Assembly: GCA_963751575.1 (NCBI GenBank)
Contig: CAVVUX010000002.1
Span: 367,984-431,983, forward strand
DNA: 64,000 bases
Direction: 5' to 3'
DNA from: an uncultured Chloroflexia bacterium
GTDB taxonomy: Bacteria; Chloroflexota; Anaerolineae; Anaerolineales; UBA11858
In this document: positions 8,517-24,510 of the stretch, one piece after another
Numbering within the stretch: position 1 is the first letter of the stretch
Layout: each line of letters begins with the position of its first letter
The notes under the pieces: model-generated
Told to the model about the DNA's origin: nothing
The model's input: the letters and a program-made list of their open reading frames with translations, nothing else
Database searches by the model: none
Position numbers and translations under genes: made by a program

Positions 8517-10538
8517 ATGACTATTGTAATAATCCTGTTTTTTCTTCTTGTATTTATGTATCTGGCTTCATTTCAATTGTTGACCAGAAGAGAAAGTGCC
8601 GTCAAGGCGTTCCTGATCACGTTTGGCTGTACAGCGGTGATAACAGAATTCTTGTCCCTATTTGACCTGCTGACTGTCCAGGCAGTTTTCGCTTCCTGGT
8701 GTGGTCTGATTGGATTGCTGGGAATACTGTTCCTTCGAAAGCTGAAGGATGGTAATTGGAAATTTACCAGAGTCAGATCTATCTTTAATCTCGCTGGGTT
8801 GAAAGATCTCTCCCTCCTTGAGAAATTCATTATTCTATCTATTTTGAGCATCTTGATCTTGACTTTTCTGATTGCTATTTATTCACCTCCGAACAATTTT
8901 GACTCGATGACCTATCATATGGCTCGAGTTGTCCATTGGATTCAACAGAAAAGTGTAAGTTTTTATCCAACATCGATCCCAAGGCAAAATCATTCCATGC
9001 CTCTGGTTGAGTATTTGATACTTCATCTTCAACTGTTAAGTAAATCTGATCAGTATGCCAACCTGGTCCAGTGGGCAGGTTTTGTGATCTTGATATTGCT
9101 TGGATCAGAATTTACACGATTATTTCAGGTATCCAGGAAGGGGCAATTGCTGGCAGCTCTCTTCGCAGCCACCATACCGATGGCAATCCTGCAGAGCAGC
9201 AGTACCCAAAACGATCTGATTGTGAGCGTATTTTGTGTAAGTTTTGCTTATTATTTATCACGGATCCTACAATCACCGACGAGGGATGAGACTGTTTTTG
9301 GTGGTCTGGCCTTGGGTCTGGCACTTTTAACCAAGGGAACAGCTTATATATTTTGTGCAAGTATAGGTCTGGTCTATGGTTCAGTCAGTTTAATCAGGCA
9401 AACACAGGAAATCAGAATTAAACTCATCAAGAGTTATTTCCTGATGATTATGTTGGCACTGATATTGAATGTTGGTTTCTATCAAAGAAATTTCAACCTT
9501 TACGGGAATCCCCTTTCCACTGAAACTGAAAGGATAACAGTTGATAATCTAACACTTGGAGGATTATATTCTAATCTGGTCAGGAACTATTCCGCGCACC
9601 TGGCTGTTCCGATTCCAGCCCTAAATGAGAAACTCTCAAGTGAGGTGTCCACTTTACTCGGTGATCTTGCTGACCATCCGGCTTATACATTTTCTGGCAC
9701 ACAATTTAAGATCCACTTCTTAATTAATGATGATCATTCTGGCAACCCGATCCATTTATTATTGATCTCGCTCCTAATCTTGCTGATTCTAGCGAACAGG
9801 AAAAAAAGGATCAGGATATTGATACGCACATTGGAGCAGTAATTCTTTCTGTCCTGCTCTTTTCATTACTTTTAAAATGGCAGCCTTGGGGCACCCGGCT
9901 TCAATTGCCGATCTTTTTTCTGGGAGCTCCACTCTTTGGTATTTTCTATGACAAAACGCACCGCTCTAAATATCTACCCTATTTGCTTTGTTTGCTATTG
10001 ACGCTTTATTCACTGCCGTTCGTTTTCTTAAATGCTTCCAGACCGTTGATACCTTTATTTAGCCAGGAATCACCCCTGAGGTCAAATCGAATCAAACGGT
10101 TCTTTTCAGATCGACCTAACAGGTATACAGAATATTATGAGATCATCCGTCCGTTTTTAAGAGATATTGGTATTCTCCACACGGATCGGACAGATTCCTC
10201 TACTTTTCTGGGACCAAATGGGATTATTAGAAGACTATCTCCTAGTGATGGATGCGGTAAACGTGATTGAATGAAGATTATTATGGATTGTATCTGGGTG
10301 AAAATGATTGGGAGTATCCAATCTGGGTTTTGTCTGAGCAGACTGATCCCAGCAGGATTTCCAAAATTCATTCACGTCAGATGTTGGGGATTTATCTCCC
10401 GCACCTTGAACAGGCGATTCTGATTTTTATCCGGATTATGTCATATCGACCGAGCAATCAGGGTCTGATTGGTTAGATGCCAATCAGTATGAAATTATTG
10501 TAGATACAAAATCGATCGATCTTTATCAGAAGCGCTGA
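8517..10538 (+). pseudogene. polytopic GT-C-like membrane glycosyltransferase (PMT_2/GT39-like), frame-disrupted
   Basis: The frame-0 ORF 8517-9842 is multi-TM and contains NNFDSMTYHMARVVHW. The protein-like sequence continues in frame 2 from the A7 run 9801-9807 (..KDQDIDTHIGAVILSVLLFSLLLKWQPWGTRLQLPIFFLGAPL). It moves to frame 0 after T5 10154-10158 (LLFWDQMGLLEDYLLVMDAVNVIE), then to frame 1 (EDYYGLYLGENDWEYPIWVL). It returns to frame 0 after T5 10424-10428 (FYPDYVISTEQSGSDWLDANQYEIIVDTKSIDLYQKR, stop 10536-10538). Confidence 0.65.
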
Positions 10539-10570
10539 GTTAGGGACTCTTGAAGAATTAGTTATCGAGC

Positions 10571-10622
10571 TTGACACGATGTGAAAACACTCTATAATTC
10601 AATTATTGAATTTTAGAGTGTT
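10571..10622 (+). promoter_or_regulatory. near-consensus promoter with overlapping palindromic operator upstream of wzm
   Basis: TTGACA (10571-10576), 16-nt spacer, TATAAT (10593-10598). The inverted repeat AACACTCTATAATTCAA / TTGAATTTTAGAGTGTT (10586-10602 / 10606-10622) pairs at 16 of 17 positions around a 3-nt centre and includes the -10 hexamer. Confidence 0.7.
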
Positions 10623-10651
10623 CGTTTTCAAGGAACCACGATGATTTTCTG

Positions 10652-11521
10652 GTGTACAACAAAAAAATAGGTAATCTTATGGCACAGTCTGATCTAAAAA
10701 TACCCCAAATAATTATCGATGCCGATCAAGAGAACCGGAAAATTATCAATTGGCGGGAACTTTGGCAGTATAAGGACCTGTTCTTTTTTTTGGTCTGGCG
10801 GGATATTAAGACCAGGTATGCCCAATCGATCCTGGGAGTGGGTTGGGCTATTATCCAGCCGGTATTTTCAATGATTGTGTTTACTATTGTTTTTGGAAAT
10901 TTAGCAAAAGTCAATTCGGAGGGGGTACCCTATGCAATCTTCAGCTTTACAGCCTTGGTGCCCTGGACTTTTTTCTCTACATCGCTAACAAGTGCCAGTG
11001 GAAGCCTGATCAGCTCTCAACGCTTGCTTACCAAAGTCTATTTCCCAAGATTAGTGATCCCAATTGCACCTGTCCTGGGGAAGCTGGTCGATTTTGGGAT
11101 AGCTTTTCTGATACTGCTCGGTTTAATGGTTTGGTACAAAGTGACACCAACGATCTGGTCCTTACTTGTCCCGGTCTTTGTGCTCTTAATGGCGCTAACT
11201 GCTGCCGGAGTGGGAATGTGGCTGACAGCCCTGTCGATCCAATACAGGGATATTCGGTATGGCGCTGATTTTTTTGTTCAGTTGTTATTATACGCTTCGC
11301 CCGTTATCTATGCGACCAGTATCATTCCTGAAAAATTCCAAATCCTGTACGCTTTGAATCCTATGGTAGGAGTAATCGAAGGTTTTCGAGCTGCCCTGCT
11401 GGGTACTCGGTCTATGCCTTGGGAGTTTTTAGGAATTGGCACCTTAATGTCAATCGCATTTTTCCTCAGCGGGGCATTGTATTTTCGATCGATGGAACGC
11501 TATTTTGCTGATGTAGCCTGA
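10652..11521 (+). CDS. wzm: ABC-2 type polysaccharide/O-antigen export permease
   Basis: 289-aa multi-TM ORF with an ABC-2 permease layout, directly followed by an ABC ATPase gene. The alternative start ATG 10679 (MAQSDL) is plausible. Confidence 0.8.
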   Translation: MYNKKIGNLMAQSDLKIPQIIIDADQENRKIINWRELWQYKDLFFFLVWRDIKTRYAQSILGVGWAIIQPVFSMIVFTIVFGNLAKVNSEGVPYAIFSFTALVPWTFFSTSLTSASGSLISSQRLLTKVYFPRLVIPIAPVLGKLVDFGIAFLILLGLMVWYKVTPTIWSLLVPVFVLLMALTAAGVGMWLTALSIQYRDIRYGADFFVQLLLYASPVIYATSIIPEKFQILYALNPMVGVIEGFRAALLGTRSMPWEFLGIGTLMSIAFFLSGALYFRSMERYFADVA

Positions 11522-11546: not shown

Positions 11547-12839
11547 ATGTCCAAAAACGTTATCAAAGTTGCCAATTTATCTAAACGGTACCGGATCGGA
11601 TCTGAAAAACTGTCCCGGGATACGCTGGCTGAAGTTTTCTCAGATTGGGTGACCAGACCAATCAAAAATTTACGCAGGTTGAGAAAGCTGACCCAATTCG
11701 ATCAAGTTGATCAGCAAGAAGATGATATTGTCTGGGCTCTTAAGGATGTCAATTTTGAAGTGAAGCCTGGAGAGGTAATTGGAGTTATTGGTAAAAATGG
11801 AGCCGGGAAGAGCACATTATTAAAGATCCTCAGCAGGATCACGTATCCGACGCAGGGCAGGGTAGAGCTGAACGGAAGGGTCTCAAGTTTGCTGGAAGTG
11901 GGAACCGGATTTCATCCAGAATTGACTGGTCGGGACAATGTTTATTTAAATGGAACGATCCTGGGGATGACCAGGACAGAGATCGATCGGAAATTTGATG
12001 AAATAGTCGAATTCTCAGGAATTAAAAAGTTCATCGACACACCGGTCAAGTTTTATTCAAGCGGGATGGGCGTCAGGCTGGCATTTTCAGTCGCAGCTCA
12101 CCTAGAGCCTGAAATATTATTAATCGATGAGGTTCTTTCCGTTGGTGATGCAGCCTTCCAAAAGAAATCCCTGGGTAAAATGGAAGAGGTATCCGAACAA
12201 GGTAGAACGGTGTTATTTGTCAGCCACAACATGGGTGCTGTCCGGTCACTTTGTACCCGGGGATTACTGCTAGAAGATGGTTGTCTGACCCTGGACGCAG
12301 ATGTGGACAACGTGATCAATACCTACTTATCAAGCAAAGATGTATCTTCATCCGGGAGCTTAGCCTGGACCGAGGCGGATGCTCCGCGAGATGCAGAATT
12401 AATCCTATTTGGGATACAGGTTGTATCTGAATCGGGAGATGTCAAGACTGCATATCAGATCGATGAGGGTTTTAAGATCAAAATTCATTACCAGATCCTG
12501 GAGGAAGTAAAAAACCTCCGCTTGTATCTCCGTTTTAAATCAACCATGAGCGAAACTATCTTTGCCACTTATGAGGATTCGCAGATCCAGGAAGGGTTTA
12601 ACCGCAAGCCTGGACATTACACAGCAGTCTGTAAGATTCCACCCAATATTCTTAATAATCTGACCTACCGGATCTATATTGGTTTTGATTCTCCGGGCAA
12701 TAAAGTGTTGATACCCGGGAAAGAATATCTGGAGGTTGATATTGTCGATACATCGGATGGCTATCGTTATGACAGGGATGCTTTTGATGGACCTGTCCGT
12801 CCGGTATTCGATTGGCATGTTGAAGAACGAGGCAGGTAA
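11547..12839 (+). CDS. wzt: polysaccharide/O-antigen export ABC ATPase with C-terminal carbohydrate-binding-type domain
   Basis: Walker A GKNGAGKST, signature-like YSSGMGVRLAF and Walker B LLIDEVLSVGD. About 175 extra C-terminal residues (after ~aa 255) are beta-rich, as in Wzt_C-type domains. Confidence 0.85.
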   Translation: MSKNVIKVANLSKRYRIGSEKLSRDTLAEVFSDWVTRPIKNLRRLRKLTQFDQVDQQEDDIVWALKDVNFEVKPGEVIGVIGKNGAGKSTLLKILSRITYPTQGRVELNGRVSSLLEVGTGFHPELTGRDNVYLNGTILGMTRTEIDRKFDEIVEFSGIKKFIDTPVKFYSSGMGVRLAFSVAAHLEPEILLIDEVLSVGDAAFQKKSLGKMEEVSEQGRTVLFVSHNMGAVRSLCTRGLLLEDGCLTLDADVDNVINTYLSSKDVSSSGSLAWTEADAPRDAELILFGIQVVSESGDVKTAYQIDEGFKIKIHYQILEEVKNLRLYLRFKSTMSETIFATYEDSQIQEGFNRKPGHYTAVCKIPPNILNNLTYRIYIGFDSPGNKVLIPGKEYLEVDIVDTSDGYRYDRDAFDGPVRPVFDWHVEERGR

Positions 12840-13771: not shown

Positions 13772-14749
13772 ATGAGTAAAGTGCTGATAACAGGTGGAGC
13801 AGGGTTTATTGGATCCTATGTGAGCAGAAAACTGCTCGATCAAGGCCATGAAGTAATTATCTATGATGCTTTTGTCCACTATATATCGCCCTTAAAGAGC
13901 GTTTTAAAGGATTTCACAGAACTGCGTTTCGAGGGGATAGCCGACCAGATCGATTTCCGGCGGGGCGACACACGGGATAAAGCGCATCTTCGCAGGATTA
14001 TTCTCGAAACCAAACCGGATCATATCCTTCATTTAGCAGCATTACCGATTGCAGATCTATCCAACAGGCACTCAGAAGAAGCCCTTGCCAGCATTCTTGA
14101 AGGAGCTGTGAATGTTCTGGAGGTACTTAGGGATGTAGATTTCGTGAATAGATTTGTCTATATATCATCATCTATGATTTATGGTGATTTTGAACAGGTT
14201 CCTGCTCCGGAGGATCATCCCAAGCGGCCGAAAGATATCTATGGTGGAACCAAATATGCTGGAGAAATACTGACCGAAACATACAGCAGGCGCTATAACA
14301 TCCCCTACAGCATCATCCGTCCCTCAGCAGTTTACGGCCCCTTCGACGTCAATCGCAGAGTAAGCCAGATCTTTGTGGAGAATGCCTTACTTGGAAAACC
14401 GATTACTCTTTATGGTGGCGGGCGCCAGGTACTGGATTTCACTTTTGTGGAAGACATAGCAGATGGGATCATCAAGGTTATGTTTTCTAAGAAAGGTTTG
14501 GGAGAAGCGTTTAATATTACTTACGGTTTGGGATACACTTTGCGGGAACTGGCTGATATCTTGCTAACTCATTTTGAGGATCTTGAAATAAAAATTGTTG
14601 AAGAAGAAGATGTATTCCGTCCCAAACGCGGTGCGCTGTCGATTGAAAAAGCAAAATCTCTGGTCGGATATGACCCCCAATATTCGCTTGATGCTGGCAT
14701 TCAGCGCTACCTGGATGTTTATCAAAACCTTGCGGTGTTCAAGAAATAA
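13772..14749 (+). CDS. NAD-dependent epimerase/dehydratase (extended SDR)
   Basis: GGAGFIGS Rossmann motif and YGGTKYAGE (YxxxK); 325 aa. Confidence 0.75.
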   Translation: MSKVLITGGAGFIGSYVSRKLLDQGHEVIIYDAFVHYISPLKSVLKDFTELRFEGIADQIDFRRGDTRDKAHLRRIILETKPDHILHLAALPIADLSNRHSEEALASILEGAVNVLEVLRDVDFVNRFVYISSSMIYGDFEQVPAPEDHPKRPKDIYGGTKYAGEILTETYSRRYNIPYSIIRPSAVYGPFDVNRRVSQIFVENALLGKPITLYGGGRQVLDFTFVEDIADGIIKVMFSKKGLGEAFNITYGLGYTLRELADILLTHFEDLEIKIVEEEDVFRPKRGALSIEKAKSLVGYDPQYSLDAGIQRYLDVYQNLAVFKK

Positions 14750-18370: not shown

Positions 18371-18415
18371 TTGACCTGATACCAATCTAGTGTATAATTC
18401 AGTGACTGAATTATA
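18371..18415 (+). promoter_or_regulatory. promoter with overlapping perfect palindrome upstream of the MarR-like regulator
   Basis: TTGACC (18371-18376), 16-nt spacer, TATAAT (18393-18398). The perfect inverted repeat TATAATTCAGT-G-ACTGAATTATA (18393-18415) starts at the -10 hexamer. An RBS TAGGAG lies at 18421-18426. Confidence 0.7.
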
Positions 18416-18435: not shown

Positions 18436-18924
18436 ATGGATCTTTCTCAGGAAGACAGGGAGCTCATTCTTTTAGAGAAAATTGCCAATGACCCTGATGT
18501 AAATCAGGCGACCCTGGCAGAACTTCTTGATGTAGCAGTGGGTACTGTCAACTGGCATATTAAGCGGTTGGTATCCAAAGGTTATGTCAAAGCTAAGAGA
18601 GCCCAACGAAAAAAACTTCGCTACATCATCACTCCGGAAGGTATTGCCCTCAGAGCAAAACTGACTGTTCAGTATATCGAAAACCAAATGCGTATGTATC
18701 GGGAGACCCGCCAGAATGTAAAAAAACTTCTGGCTGAGATCAGGGAAGATGGTTTTAATGAAGTGAGAATATCCGGGAAAAGTGAAATTGCAGATGTGTG
18801 CCAGCTTACCTGCCTCGAACAAGGATTTAATGTGGTTGAGAGGGGCGATATACCTGTTTTAGAAGTATCAGGTTATTCAGTTGTCTTGAAAAAAGAACCT
18901 GCCAGGGAAAACCAGGCAGCTTGA
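18436..18924 (+). CDS. winged-helix transcriptional regulator, MarR-like (EPS-locus-associated type)
   Basis: 162 aa with wHTH segment NQATLAELLDVAVGTVNWHIKRLVSKGYVKAKR. It is embedded in the polysaccharide locus. Confidence 0.65.
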   Translation: MDLSQEDRELILLEKIANDPDVNQATLAELLDVAVGTVNWHIKRLVSKGYVKAKRAQRKKLRYIITPEGIALRAKLTVQYIENQMRMYRETRQNVKKLLAEIREDGFNEVRISGKSEIADVCQLTCLEQGFNVVERGDIPVLEVSGYSVVLKKEPARENQAA

Positions 18925-18972: not shown

Positions 18973-20040
18973 ATGAAAAAAGCGATCATTACTGGAATTA
19001 CAGGGCAGGATGGATCATATCTGGCTGAGCTGCTGCTCCACAAGGGATATGAAGTGCATGGTGTGATTCGGAGAGCCTCAACCTTTAATACCAACAGGCT
19101 GGATCATCTTTATCGGGACCCTCACAATGGGGAGGAGGTTAAACTTTATCTTCATTATGGTGATCTCACGAGTTCAGATAGCCTTGAACGGGTGATCCAT
19201 GAAGTTCACCCGGATGAGGTTTACCATCTCGCTGCTCAAAGTCATGTTCGGGTTAGTTTTGACCTACCAGAGTATACCGGAGATGTTTCAGGTTTAGGTA
19301 CGATCAGGATCCTGGAAGCTATCCGCCGGTCAGGAATCAAGACCCGCTTCTATCAGGCTTCTACAAGTGAATTATTTGGAAGTGCTGACCCTCCTCAAAG
19401 CGAGCTGACACCATTTCAACCTCAGAGCCCGTACGCAGCGGCTAAATTATATGCGTTTTGGGTTACCAGGAATTACTCAGAGGGTTATGGTCTATTTGCC
19501 TGTAATGGAATTTTGTTTAACCACGAATCTCCCCGCAGGGGCGAGACCTTTGTTACCAGGAAAATAACCAGGGCAGTAGCAAGGATTAAGGCAGGAGTCC
19601 AGAAAAAACTTTACTTGGGAAACCTGGAGTCTAAACGAGATTGGGGCTATGCCCCGGAATATGTTGAAGCGATGTGGTCTATGCTCCAGCAAGAACAACC
19701 CTATGACATCGTGATCGGGACAGGAGAAGCACATACAGTTCGCGAATTTGTAGAGGAAGCGTTCAGTTATGTTGATCTCAATTACAAAGATTATGTAGAG
19801 ATCGATCCACGCTACTTCCGACCTACAGAAGTTGATTATCTGGAAGCTGATCCCGGCAAAGCAAAAAGAATCCTCAACTGGGATCCAAAAGTCCGGTACC
19901 ACGACCTGGTCAGGATCATGATGGATGCAGATCTTGAGTTGATTGGTTTGGACTCACCCGGCTTTGGAAAAAAGATTATAGATGAAAAATTTGATGTCTG
20001 GCATAAATGGGAAGACCAGGTAGTCAGCATGGGGAGATGA
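18973..20040 (+). CDS. gmd: GDP-mannose 4,6-dehydratase
   Basis: [34 protein letters not shown] and [17 protein letters not shown] are classical Gmd blocks. Confidence 0.9.
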
Positions 20041-21020
20041 AAATGATGAATCCAGATCAATTTCCTGATCCATTTGAATTTTGGTTGGATAAGACAGTTT
20101 GTGTCACCGGCGGTGATGGATTCCTGGGCAGCTTTGTCCAAAAAACCCTTCGGGAGCGAGGCGTTGAGAATATTTTTATTCCCCTGATCGATGATTACGA
20201 TCTTACTGAAACTGACAATATCCGGCGCATGTTATCAGACGCAAAACCAGATATTATCATTCACCTGGCTGCCTTAGCTGGCGGCATTGGTGCTAATCGA
20301 GCTCGTCCGGCGGAATTTTTCTACAAGAATCTGATGATGGGGGTTCCGCTGATGCATGAAGCCTGGAAATTTGGTGTTAGTAAATTTGTGGCTATTGGAA
20401 CAATCTGTGCTTATCCAAAATACACCCCGGTTCCCTTTAAAGAAGAAAACCTCTGGGAAGGATATCCCGAAGAAACAAACGCACCATATGGATTGGCGAA
20501 AAAAATGTTATTGGTTCAGGCTCAAGCCTATCGTGAACAATATGGCTTTAATGCAATCTACCTGCTTCCGGTAAATCTTTATGGCCCCCGGGATAATTTT
20601 AACCTTGAAACATCCCATGTCATCCCTGCCTTGATCAGAAAGATGGTCGATGCAGCAGATCAGGGGATTGATGAAGTTGTATTGTGGGGTGATGGATCCC
20701 CGACCCGGGAATTTTTCTATGCCGGAGATGCAGCCAGGGGCATCGCGATGGCTGCTGAAAGGTACGATGGCAGCGATCCAGTTAATCTTGGCGCAGGAAT
20801 GGAGATCAGCATCAAGGATCTGGCAGAATTAATTGCCCGCTCAGTTGGCTATACGGGTCGGATAGTGTGGGATTCAAGCAAACCTAATGGCCAACCAAGA
20901 AGAGCCCTTGATACCCAACGGGCCAAAGAATATTTTGGATTTGAATCAGAAATGCCGTTTGAGGATGGAATTGTGAAAACGATCGAATGGTACAGGGCAA
21001 ACAAAGATCAAATTGTATAG
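20037..21020 (+). CDS. fcl: GDP-L-fucose synthase (GDP-4-keto-6-deoxymannose 3,5-epimerase/4-reductase)
   Basis: [21 protein letters not shown] and [12 protein letters not shown] 20037 overlaps the gmd stop (ATGA). The track start at 20007 is an upstream extension. Confidence 0.85.
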
Positions 21021-22080: not shown

Positions 22081-23058
22081 ATGAGAGTTGGGGCTAATCC
22101 CGTAAAAAATAAACAGCCAGCGATCTCCCCACCGAAACCTGTAACGGTTGTGGTGATTTGCTATATACCTTATTTGAGCGGATATTTCCAGCACAGCCTG
22201 GATGTGTTAAAACTATCCCTTACCAGCATCCGGGAAAATACTGCTGATGAAGCATATGATTTGCTGGTATTTGACAATGGCAGTTGTGAACAGGTCAAGG
22301 ATTATCTGACAAAATTAAAAAATGAGAATAAGATCCAATACCTGATTCTATCAAGCACTAATGTTGGTATTCCGGGTGCCTGGAATATTTCATTTAATGC
22401 GGCTCCCGGCAAATATGTTGCATTTTCTGATTATGATATTTATTTTTATCCTGGTTGGCTGACCGAGCATTTGAGAATATTTGATAAATTCCCCCATGTT
22501 GGCATGGTTACCGGCACTCCTATTCGCCCTCCGTTAAAATATTCTTCAGCGACGCTGGAATGGGCTGAAGCACAATCGGAGCTGGAGATTAAACGCGGTG
22601 TTCTGCAATCGTGGGAGGATTTTCGGACCCATACCAAAAGCTTGGGAATGTCGGAGATTGAATCTGAAGAATCCTATCACCATGGTGAAGATATCCTGCT
22701 TAAATTGGGGGAAAATGAGGTATTTATTGGTGCAGGACACTTCCAATTTGTTGCTTTAAAGGAAGTATTAGAAAAAGTGACTCCATTTCCGAATAAGATC
22801 GCGATGGGAAATGAGCGATTATTGGACCAGAGGATCAATGAGTTGGGATTATTAAGACTGACATTAAATCGGAAATTTGTTCAGCATCTGGGAAATGTAC
22901 CCTCCCCGGAATTTTTAGAGCAAAATGATGGTTTATGGAGAAAATACTCAACGATAGGATCTGTTGAAAGGAAGGCAGGTTTTTGGAATATTCCCATCAT
23001 AAAAAAGGTTCTCTTAAAAATATATAATTCAATCTTTGAGATATATTTCCACCAGTAA
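22081..23058 (+). CDS. glycosyltransferase family 2-like
   Basis: VTVVVICYIPYLSG...LLVFDNGSCEQV and FSDYDIYF (DxD-like) are typical of a GT-A/GT2 N-terminal domain. Confidence 0.7.
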   Translation: MRVGANPVKNKQPAISPPKPVTVVVICYIPYLSGYFQHSLDVLKLSLTSIRENTADEAYDLLVFDNGSCEQVKDYLTKLKNENKIQYLILSSTNVGIPGAWNISFNAAPGKYVAFSDYDIYFYPGWLTEHLRIFDKFPHVGMVTGTPIRPPLKYSSATLEWAEAQSELEIKRGVLQSWEDFRTHTKSLGMSEIESEESYHHGEDILLKLGENEVFIGAGHFQFVALKEVLEKVTPFPNKIAMGNERLLDQRINELGLLRLTLNRKFVQHLGNVPSPEFLEQNDGLWRKYSTIGSVERKAGFWNIPIIKKVLLKIYNSIFEIYFHQ

Positions 23059-23081: not shown

Positions 23082-24510
23082 ATGGAAAAGCGAATATTTT
23101 TAGTAGCAAACCATGGACTTTCGATCATATATTTTTTACAAAGTGATGTGCTAGCTACTCTAGTTAAATCAGGAATTAAGGTTGTTATTTTCACCGACGA
23201 TGAAGTGATTCCGAAGATCCAAAAAATGATCGAGTATCCGAATGTTGCTGTGGAGAGCATGCGCTTAACAGAGGTAGATAAATTTTGGAAAACGAAATAT
23301 CCATCTCTCCAGTATTGGATCGATTTTCTCCGCCGGGCTGGTGCATCAAAAAAAATAAATCTCGAAGCGGTTCAATCATATATTGAACAGGTTGAATATG
23401 AAGCCCATACCAAGCGAAAATTGATTTTTCCCCTGATCAAAGTCTTAGTATTGATCCTTCGAAATTCACGTTTGGCCAGGAAAATGCTGGTTAGGGCCCA
23501 GCAATTTTTTACTCCCGAGATTTATTCTGACCTATTTGATAAATACAAACCAGAGTTGGTTGTCTCAATTACACCGGGCTGGCGGCAAGATCGATATCTG
23601 CTCAGGGAAGCGAAAAAACGAGGTGTGATAACAAGCTCCATCATTCTTGGATGGGACAATTCCAGCAGCTACAGCCTGCCAGGTGCAGATGTGGACTGGG
23701 TCTCTTGCTGGTCGGAGATCCAAAAAGAGGAGTTGGTCAAAGGATCCGATTGGAATCCTGACAGGGTAAATATTGGCGGGATCCCGTCCTATGATGGTTA
23801 TTTTAATGAGATCTGGAAAATGCCCCGGGGTGATTATTATAAATCGCATAATCTCGATCCGGACCGAAAATTAATTTCTTACGCCTGTAGTTTTATAACA
23901 TTTTCCCCAAATATTCAAAATATTAAAGCGTTGGAAAGTATTATCAGCTCTGACAGCTTGATCGAGCCTTGCCAATTATTGATCAGATTGCATCCGAACC
24001 ATTTCCTGGAAGATCCCCGGTTTAAGGATGAAATGATAATGATCAATGAGTTAGCCCAGAATAATAACCATGTCCATCTGGTTGAACCGGTCGCCCTTGG
24101 CGGAGACCTGGGATACTATTCAGGGGAGGATATGCCGGAAAAATCCTCCATGATGGCCCATTCTGATGTGATGGTGACCGTTTACTCTACCATGGCACTA
24201 GAGGCAACTATCCATGAAACTCCTGTGATCAGCCTCTGTATTGATTCGGAGTCTGGCTGGCCAGAATAATTTTTCCCTGCAATTGTCGCAAATTGGAGGG
24301 TGGCCAACCCATGAAAGGTTCATTGCTTCAGGAGCAGGAAGAGAAGCAAGCAACCGGGAAGAATTAGTGGAGGCTCTTAATTATTATTTGAAAGAACCAG
24401 ACCAAGATCATGAGCTCAGGCGGGCGTTTATCACTCGGGAATGTACCTATATAGATGGCAGCGCAGGAAAACACACTGGCGAATTTTTAGCATCCCTGGT
24501 TGTGGAATAA
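23082..24510 (+). pseudogene. GT-B-fold protein (glycosyltransferase or sugar-nucleotide epimerase-like), one frame disruption
   Basis: ORF 23082-24269 ends ..ISLCIDSESGWPE*. It continues in the +1 frame from ~24260 (..NNFSLQLSQIGGWPTHERFIASGAGREASNREELVEALNYYLK..). The GT-B-type donor block is SDVMVTVYSTMALEATIHETPVISL. Confidence 0.55.

Follow-up and report, generated by a model that had tools for sequence, protein, structure and literature searches.

The closest described counterparts of the element analysed here are autoregulatory operators of small DNA-binding proteins. In MarR/marO of E. coli, and in MarR-family autorepressors generally, a small winged-helix dimer binds a palindromic operator laid over its own core promoter and represses its own synthesis, an arrangement that is also predicted here. 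The same logic as we propose is found at LexA boxes and at the TrpR operator, which lie over the -10 element and the start site and from which RNA polymerase is excluded sterically. Bidirectional intrinsic terminators, for their part, are hairpins with an A-run on one side and a T-run on the other, like the extended hairpin considered below. Among the named protein families, TIGR04176 ('MarR family EPS-associated transcriptional regulator') shares with the regulator described below an association with exopolysaccharide loci; no published operator or functional study of this family was found in the literature. Here, we analysed a 64,000-nt stretch of DNA from an uncultured member of the Anaerolineales, hereafter the window. 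We consider it probable, from sequence comparison, that positions 10571-10630 form a composite element in which the promoter and operator of an order-wide regulon, bound by a 162-aa winged-helix protein, are combined with a terminator or insulator hairpin.

The promoter of this element, designated site A, consists of a -35 hexamer TTGACA (10571-10576, + strand) and a -10 hexamer TATAAT (10593-10598, + strand) separated by a 16-nt spacer. In the promoter scan, the site (10571-10598) matches the sigma-70 consensus at 12/12 positions and is the top-scoring promoter-like site across 6-25 kb, in agreement with the promoter sequence and spacing given in an earlier note on this DNA. The same note had described a long palindrome that buries the -10 hexamer, and its account of the arms was borne out on the sequence: they extend over 10586-10602 and 10606-10622, are 17 bp long and pair at 16/17 positions around a 3-nt centre, while an independent repeat search called them as 18 nt with 94% complementarity. 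The outer TGAAAAC (10582-10588) and GTTTTCA (10624-10630) that it had listed as an extension are likewise present, and both are used in the RNA minimum-energy fold. Together, the 17-bp arms with their single mismatch and the outer TGAAAAC/GTTTTCA make up an extended hairpin (10582-10630) preceded by an A-run on the 5' side and followed by a T-run on the 3' side. Within the hairpin lies core box A, TATAATTCA-attat-TGAATTTTA (10593-10615), the predicted operator, whose left half-site has the -10 hexamer as its outer portion. The note had taken the palindrome as a whole for an operator. The inner 10-11 bp of each arm fit that role, but the outer 7 bp and the A-run and T-run flanks appear to be a separate feature. 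The transcription start of wzm-wzt is predicted at ~10605, inside box A. Counterparts of box A occupy orthologous wzm-region positions in the related loci L002 and L008 and in ~20 metagenome loci. Across 21 aligned wzm-region sites, cTTGAC shows no variation and keeps the same spacing to the -10, and the TATAAT hexamer is invariant both in these 21 sites and in 77 sites that precede regulator genes.

The genes downstream of site A are those of an exporter, as the note had proposed. The ABC-2 permease gene wzm (10679-11521, + strand; Pfam ABC2_membrane, NCBIfam Wzm/KpsM-like) likely starts at ATG 10679, although its reading frame is open from GTG 10652; alignment of the wzm orthologues begins at residue 1. 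It is followed by wzt (11547-12839, + strand), which encodes a Wzt/TagH-like ABC ATPase of 430 aa, and then by formyltransferase, epimerase, DegT aminotransferase, GT1 and dehydratase genes, all on the + strand and reaching to 18329. The longest ORF of the DegT aminotransferase shares 155 nt (14595-14749) with the epimerase gene before it and has its Pfam match from residue 71 onward; translation probably begins further downstream. The winged-helix regulator gene (18436-18924, + strand, 162 aa) comes next and is followed, 48 nt past its end, by gmd (18973-20040, + strand; Pfam GDP_Man_Dehyd, 460 bits), by an fcl-like epimerase/reductase gene (20007-21020, + strand; Pfam Epimerase), by an unknown gene and by a GT2 gene. 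All genes in the neighbourhood formed by site A, the regulator, gmd and fcl are on the + strand. More broadly, ORFs of at least 180 aa are nearly all on the + strand over window positions 1-64000, and the cumulative GC skew climbs steadily throughout. The segment 26001-28000 has a G+C content of 0.35 compared with ~0.44 elsewhere and may represent foreign or variable glycan-cluster DNA. A scan of the whole window with Rfam at the gathering threshold identified no RNA family. A riboswitch or leader structure for wzm was considered and judged unlikely, the predicted 5' UTR (10605-10685) folding no better than shuffled sequences (z = +0.67).

Upstream of site A lies a gene for a PMT_2-family membrane glycosyltransferase (8517-10539, + strand; Pfam PMT_2), which ends near 10537, 32 nt before the -35 hexamer. 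Compared with an intact 668-aa orthologue (L105:1845-3851), the gene is broken across four reading frames: in a tblastn search with the L105 protein, the matches fall at 8589-9746, 9875-10189, 10285-10335 and 10428-10532, in differing frames. The split gene is either a pseudogene or the product of assembly indel errors.

The core of the palindrome recurs at 18393-18415 in front of the regulator gene, as reported in the note, and the two 27-nt boxes compared there are indeed identical at 22/27 positions by hand count. Box B, TATAATTCAG-TGA-CTGAATTATA (18393-18415), is a perfect palindrome and is predicted to serve as an autoregulatory operator; it ends 20 nt before the regulator ATG at 18436. 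It coincides with the promoter of the regulator operon (18371-18398, + strand), made up of TTGACC (18371-18376), a 16-nt spacer and TATAAT (18393-18398). The promoter scan scored this site at 11/12 to consensus, the second-best value in 6-25 kb, and its -35 is kept among the regulator orthologues. Sites A and B are alike in that TATAATTCA-N5-TGAATTWTA begins at the -10 hexamer in both. When up to 2 mismatches were allowed, the pattern TATAATTCA-N5-TGAATWWTA was found at 3 sites (6 strand-hits) in the 64-kb window, compared with 0.04 expected. A possible weaker box C, TATAATTCA-atctt-TGAGATATA (that is, TATAATTCAatcttTGAGATATA, with 2 mismatches; 23023-23045), is located within the final 36 nt of the GT2 gene, lacks a TTGAC -35 and precedes the ORF at 23082-24269 by 37 nt. 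L004 has this box at the corresponding position (14565-14587), where it is kept perhaps just because of the coding sequence around it. Box C may be an internal promoter or a roadblock site, or merely conserved coding sequence.

Comparison of related genomes carries the operator interpretation. Relatives of the regulator number in the thousands; among the best 120 clusters, identity to it is 76-100%, and the few that are named belong to Chloroflexota or Anaerolineales. The comparison set consisted of 80 species-level loci with 58-85% identity to the regulator, nearly all of them Anaerolineales MAGs, which together with the window gives 81. A box precedes the regulator's own gene in 78 of these 81, at 25-50 nt from the start codon, and nearly all regulator loci fit the box pattern without a mismatch. 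In L030, a box stands before a gmd gene that immediately precedes the regulator, and the stretch in front of the L064 regulator is the end of a gmd-type gene. In an alignment of 77 regulator-own sites, TATAATTCA and TGAATT.T reach 1.9-2.0 bits at every position, values that are somewhat inflated because the sites were picked by pattern. Information content falls to 0.1-0.8 bits at the three central bases and to ~0 bits in the -35/-10 spacer and the flanks; TTGAC is prominent at -22 to -18. As read from these alignments, the box consensus is (T)TATAATTCAR-N3-YTGAATTWTR, 23-25 bp in length, with half-sites of 10-11 bp. The arrangement is the same in L034, a MAG of Anaerolinea thermophila. One contig labelled Syntrophothermus sp. 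(L051, JBLNAU010000033.1) carries an Anaerolineales-type regulator-epimerase-fcl-wzm-wzt array with a box, and has probably been mis-binned.

The aligned sites also bear on whether the symmetry could simply reflect a bidirectional promoter, with TATAAT on each strand and no regulator site. Such an origin would account for the right arm of the window clade, TGAATTATA, which reads TATAAT on the bottom strand, and for a weak minus-strand promoter-like site (10631-10602, 10/12) that overlaps site A. However, the right arms of most orthologues are TGAATTTTG or TGAATTTTA, either of which makes a poor bottom-strand -10, and the ~0 bits of the flanks leave no conserved -35 on that strand. On these two grounds the bidirectional promoter was rejected as scarcely credible; moreover, the invariant TTCA/TGAA bases are unnecessary for sigma, and no gene is positioned for leftward transcription.

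Boxes of the same type are distributed over glycan genes. In the majority of loci, the genes follow one another on a single strand as regulator-(epimerase)-(gmd)-fcl-wzm-wzt, and the order regulator-gmd-fcl is retained in relatives; in the clade of the window (L001-L015), wzm-wzt lies upstream of the regulator. A second copy of the promoter and box precedes wzm-wzt in the window, L002 and L008, and a metagenome scan with Wzm yielded ~20 extra wzm-region boxes among close relatives. For gmd paralogues situated apart from the regulator, the distance from box to start is 35-55 nt (L017, L019, L026, L030, L049), and the gmd box of L021 is a variant with a 1-nt insertion. Further boxes are found before a GT2 gene followed by genes for an LPG_synthase_TM protein and a large protein with no Pfam match (L039, L041), before a GT2-like start (L023), before a PMT_2 gene (L057) and before an FkbM methyltransferase gene that is itself followed by PMT_2 (L105, L109). 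The copies at genes separated from the regulator operon consistently lie on the cluster strand and have TTGAC 16 nt ahead of the box. L004 and L014 have a degenerate box before wzm, and L040 has lost the one before gmd, so control of those genes is not universal. In total, 111 boxes were counted in the 1.63 Mb of related loci, and all but one (110) are on the cluster strand, the survey covering 64 kb of this genome and up to 10 kb around the relatives' genes, with all loci chosen around these genes. A -35 matching TTGACA in at least 5/6 positions accompanies 85 of the 111 boxes, at a spacer of 16 nt (82) or 18 nt (3).

One feature of the relatives counts against the model proposed below. In many close relatives (L008:604-1497, L081:2973-3866, L083, L086, L087, L089, L091, L093, L101, L102, L113), a convergent minus-strand gene of 292-341 aa, mostly 297, lies between the box and wzm, where a promoter at the box would read it antisense. 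The convergent gene is absent from the window, and the 297-aa protein of L081 has no Pfam match. L086 has two boxes, at 2451 and 2891 and thus 440 nt apart, one resembling those of L101, L102 and L113 and the other of the extended-arm type.

The regulator matches Pfam HTH_24 with 41.4 bits against a threshold of 21.9 and falls at or marginally below the thresholds of the MarR models (PF01047, 24.5 against 24.6; PF12802, 27.0 against 27.0). Its best named family match is NCBIfam TIGR04176, which covers residues 5-103 with 69.7 bits, under the cutoff of 88. In the AlphaFold model (pLDDT 88.9), a winged helix (residues 5-65) is followed by a 38-residue helix (67-104) and an alpha/beta domain (109-152). 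Since the winged helix begins at residue 5, the N-terminal helix of MarR is missing; correspondingly, MarR proteins in the PDB align to regulator residues 6-13 from their residues 28-60 onward. Foldseek searches with the model returned only MarR-type, AspA and Sso10a winged-helix proteins, at TM 0.4-0.5. The description of the protein as a MarR-like regulator in the note is therefore apt for the winged helix, which belongs to the MarR-like clan, but does not extend to the absent N-terminal helix or to the additional C-terminal domain. The latter is a small alpha/beta unit of residues ~101-156 (window 18736-18903). Pfam gave no match to it even at E = 10, and Foldseek against the PDB with this domain alone (model pLDDT 84) gave nothing better than E = 0.38. 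Two cysteines of the domain are conserved, Cys126 in at least 97% and Cys122 in at least 85% of the orthologues. Judged from its sequence and model, the C-terminal domain may be a new sensor domain.

The recognition-helix segment VAVGTVNWH..R and the basic wing are identical throughout the 80 orthologues, and this invariance of the DNA-reading segment, which parallels that of the box arms, counts toward the regulator as the protein that binds the box. Conceivably, the box is a real operator of a glycan regulon but is bound by another factor encoded elsewhere, so that the winged-helix gene is only one of its targets. We regard this as improbable. The regulator is assigned to the box by co-location, which leaves room for another binder; however, a box retained before the regulator in 78/81 orthologues that have diverged to 58-85% identity is the classic pattern of autoregulation, the DNA-reading segment varies no more than the arms do, and no box was found in ~50 loci with a distant Wzm where the regulator is not in reach. 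Overall, the suggestion in the note of an operator for a dimeric regulator placed over the -10 has gained strong comparative support from the frequency of the box among the orthologues, the invariant arms and the copies at glycan genes, and it is with the 162-aa protein as the putative binder that we develop it further.

The sequences themselves show the anatomy of the element, its conservation, the genes with which it is associated and the covariation of the extension. In the model that we infer, including the identity of the binder, repression over activation, the start site, the role of the hairpin as a terminator and the signal, a strong sigma-70-type promoter would drive wzm-wzt and the sugar-modification genes behind them. 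The box starts at the -10 hexamer and would cover the predicted start (~-12 to +11). Its most likely binder, given the co-location, would be a dimer of the 162-aa winged-helix protein (18436-18924). A centre-to-centre distance of 11 bp puts the invariant hexamers AATTCA and TGAATT on the same face of the helix, which is compatible with one recognition helix in each of two consecutive major grooves. The basic wing (KAKRAQRKKLRY) would in that case lie over the outer TAWA bases and so over the -10 hexamer. With the box occupied, RNA polymerase would be kept away by steric repression, and the outcome would be autorepression together with co-repression of gmd, fcl, glycosyltransferases and the Wzm/Wzt exporter, to be relieved by a signal probably sensed by the C-terminal domain of the regulator.

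Repression is the most likely mode because a near-consensus promoter needs no activator and the box spans both the -10 and the start. The direction of control is not readable from sequence, and some MarR/SlyA-type proteins activate capsule and polysaccharide promoters; the regulator could thus bind the box and yet activate, or act dually, for instance by reshaping the promoter and not by occluding it. Promoters that score 12/12 and 11/12 with a 16-nt spacer would leave an activator unneeded, however, and the over-long spacer of MerR-type promoters is absent. Furthermore, proteins bound over the -10 and the predicted start, where the box lies, usually exclude RNA polymerase. We therefore give activation or dual action a small share of the probability and retain steric repression as the favoured mode.

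The outer 7 bp and the A-run and T-run probably lie outside the operator and would lengthen the palindrome into a hairpin by making use of the free -35/-10 spacer. In the window, the RNA fold of the hairpin has an energy of -17.3 kcal/mol (z = -3.5), and the hairpin is located 45 nt beyond the upstream stop codon. More generally, boxes begin 29-204 nt past the nearest upstream stop codon; in loci with the convergent 297-aa gene, 29-74 nt separate the end of the box from the end of that gene. Extension by 7-13 additional contiguous Watson-Crick pairs was observed in 9 of 21 wzm-region boxes, whereas 12 lack it, and the extension sequences, such as CCCAGAACTCTT, AAATAAACGCTT, AAACCCCC and TAGCCTCTGAAG, are unrelated to each other. 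The extension measures 7 bp in the window and 8-13 bp in L002, L081, L083, L085, L086, L087, L092 and L093. At least 5 extra pairs were seen in 2 of 79 regulator-own boxes, and the boxes of gmd and GT2 genes are never extended (0/9). All 13/13 pairs of the extension vary on both sides, with a covariation of 0.255 compared with 0.150 in shuffled alignments, and none of 500 shuffles reached 0.255. In the extension helix, 61.5% of cells are paired; for the whole structure the value is 75.8%, compared with ~40% when the partners are slid. By contrast with this variation, 7/10 pairs of the core helix (helix 2) show no variation at all across the 21 wzm-region sites. The extended stems have energies of -16 to -33 kcal/mol and start some tens of nt past the upstream stop codon, and their left strand takes up most of the -35/-10 spacer.

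The AT-rich window stem contains 3 G-C pairs, and the sequence directly after it, CGTTTTCA, has only four T. A scan for consensus terminators did not flag the window hairpin, and terminator-like sites were not enriched in the region. T-tracts after the stem are clear in L002 (ATTTTATT) and L086 (AATTTATTTT) and weak in L083 and L085. On indirect evidence, we read the extended hairpin as a probable terminator or insulator of the upstream PMT_2 gene. It would stop or insulate read-through from PMT_2, so that the exporter would rely on the regulated promoter alone.

The hairpin could also be the whole story, an intrinsic terminator of the upstream gene whose likeness to site B is incidental. The low folding energy, the T-run and A-run flanks, the position past the upstream stop and the covariation of the outer arms in relatives would all be expected of such a terminator. 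Nevertheless, the inner 18 arm bases show no covariation and are fixed in ~110 sites, and a fixed core points to a protein that reads sequence, since a stem needs no fixed sequence. Moreover, the -35 hexamer lies at a fixed distance from the box, the regulator-own and gmd boxes do not form a long stem, and only their right arm would be transcribed. The core without covariation and the constant position of the -35 led us to reject a pure terminator as very improbable, and the combination of an operator core with an outer stem is retained.

The origin of that outer stem allows a stronger challenge. Template-switch 'quasi-palindrome correction' is an established mutational mechanism, and the extension might be its unselected product, seeded by the operator palindrome and persisting in unconstrained flanks. 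The presence of extensions in some lineages only (9/21), with unrelated sequences, and the modest T-runs past the stem would be explained in this way, and the ribosome-binding site and start codon constrain the regulator-own sites, which could explain the missing extension there. Conversely, extensions are found at gene ends with short gaps after the upstream stop, where a terminator would be useful, several are followed by clear T-tracts (L002, L086), and in several lineages they stay perfect over 8-13 bp. We therefore regard an unselected origin as unlikely, albeit a more serious competitor than any other considered here, and favour a selected terminator or insulator.

Members of the Anaerolineales are widespread, have hardly been cultivated and abound in sediments, digesters and mats, and gene regulation in this order is almost unstudied. 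A defined box, a candidate regulator and a set of targets could be used to predict when a conserved surface polymer is built. The match in L034 suggests that a cultured relative may serve for experiments, and the promoter should function in E. coli reporters. Other uses would be the annotation of MAGs and the design of tightly insulated promoters. As a more speculative proposal, to which we attach limited confidence, the 49-bp element could unite the -10, the operator of an order-wide regulator with a new sensor domain (Cys122, Cys126) and the core of a two-way terminator, the regulator acting as a master switch of the core envelope glycopolymer of Anaerolineales, perhaps in response to nucleotide sugars or redox state.

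With respect to the systems named at the outset, the device is familiar: an autoregulated winged-helix repressor with its operator over the -10 is not a new regulatory principle. MarR-family structures match the regulator weakly in fold (Foldseek TM 0.40-0.48) and differ from it in several respects. Unlike MarR, the regulator has no N-terminal dimerisation helix and instead possesses a 38-residue helix and an alpha/beta domain without a known relative, and its predicted targets are genes of glycan synthesis and export and not efflux or stress genes. The TIGR04176 profile spans 105 positions, whereas the regulator has ~60 extra C-terminal residues. Sso10a and AspA-type proteins, in which a winged helix is followed by a long helix, align near-full length in Foldseek with a target-normalised TM of 0.70-0.75; however, they are archaeal chromatin or plasmid-partition proteins that lack the C-terminal alpha/beta domain and have no link to glycans, and thus the likeness concerns the fold only. 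No description of the box, the regulator clade or the regulon was found in the literature. Unlike in the operators of LexA and TrpR or in known terminators, a single palindrome appears to serve as -10, half-site and stem core, with the spacer providing the outer stem. Collectively, what is new is the order-wide conserved regulon, the non-canonical architecture of its regulator and the packing of a -10, an operator and a hairpin into one palindrome.
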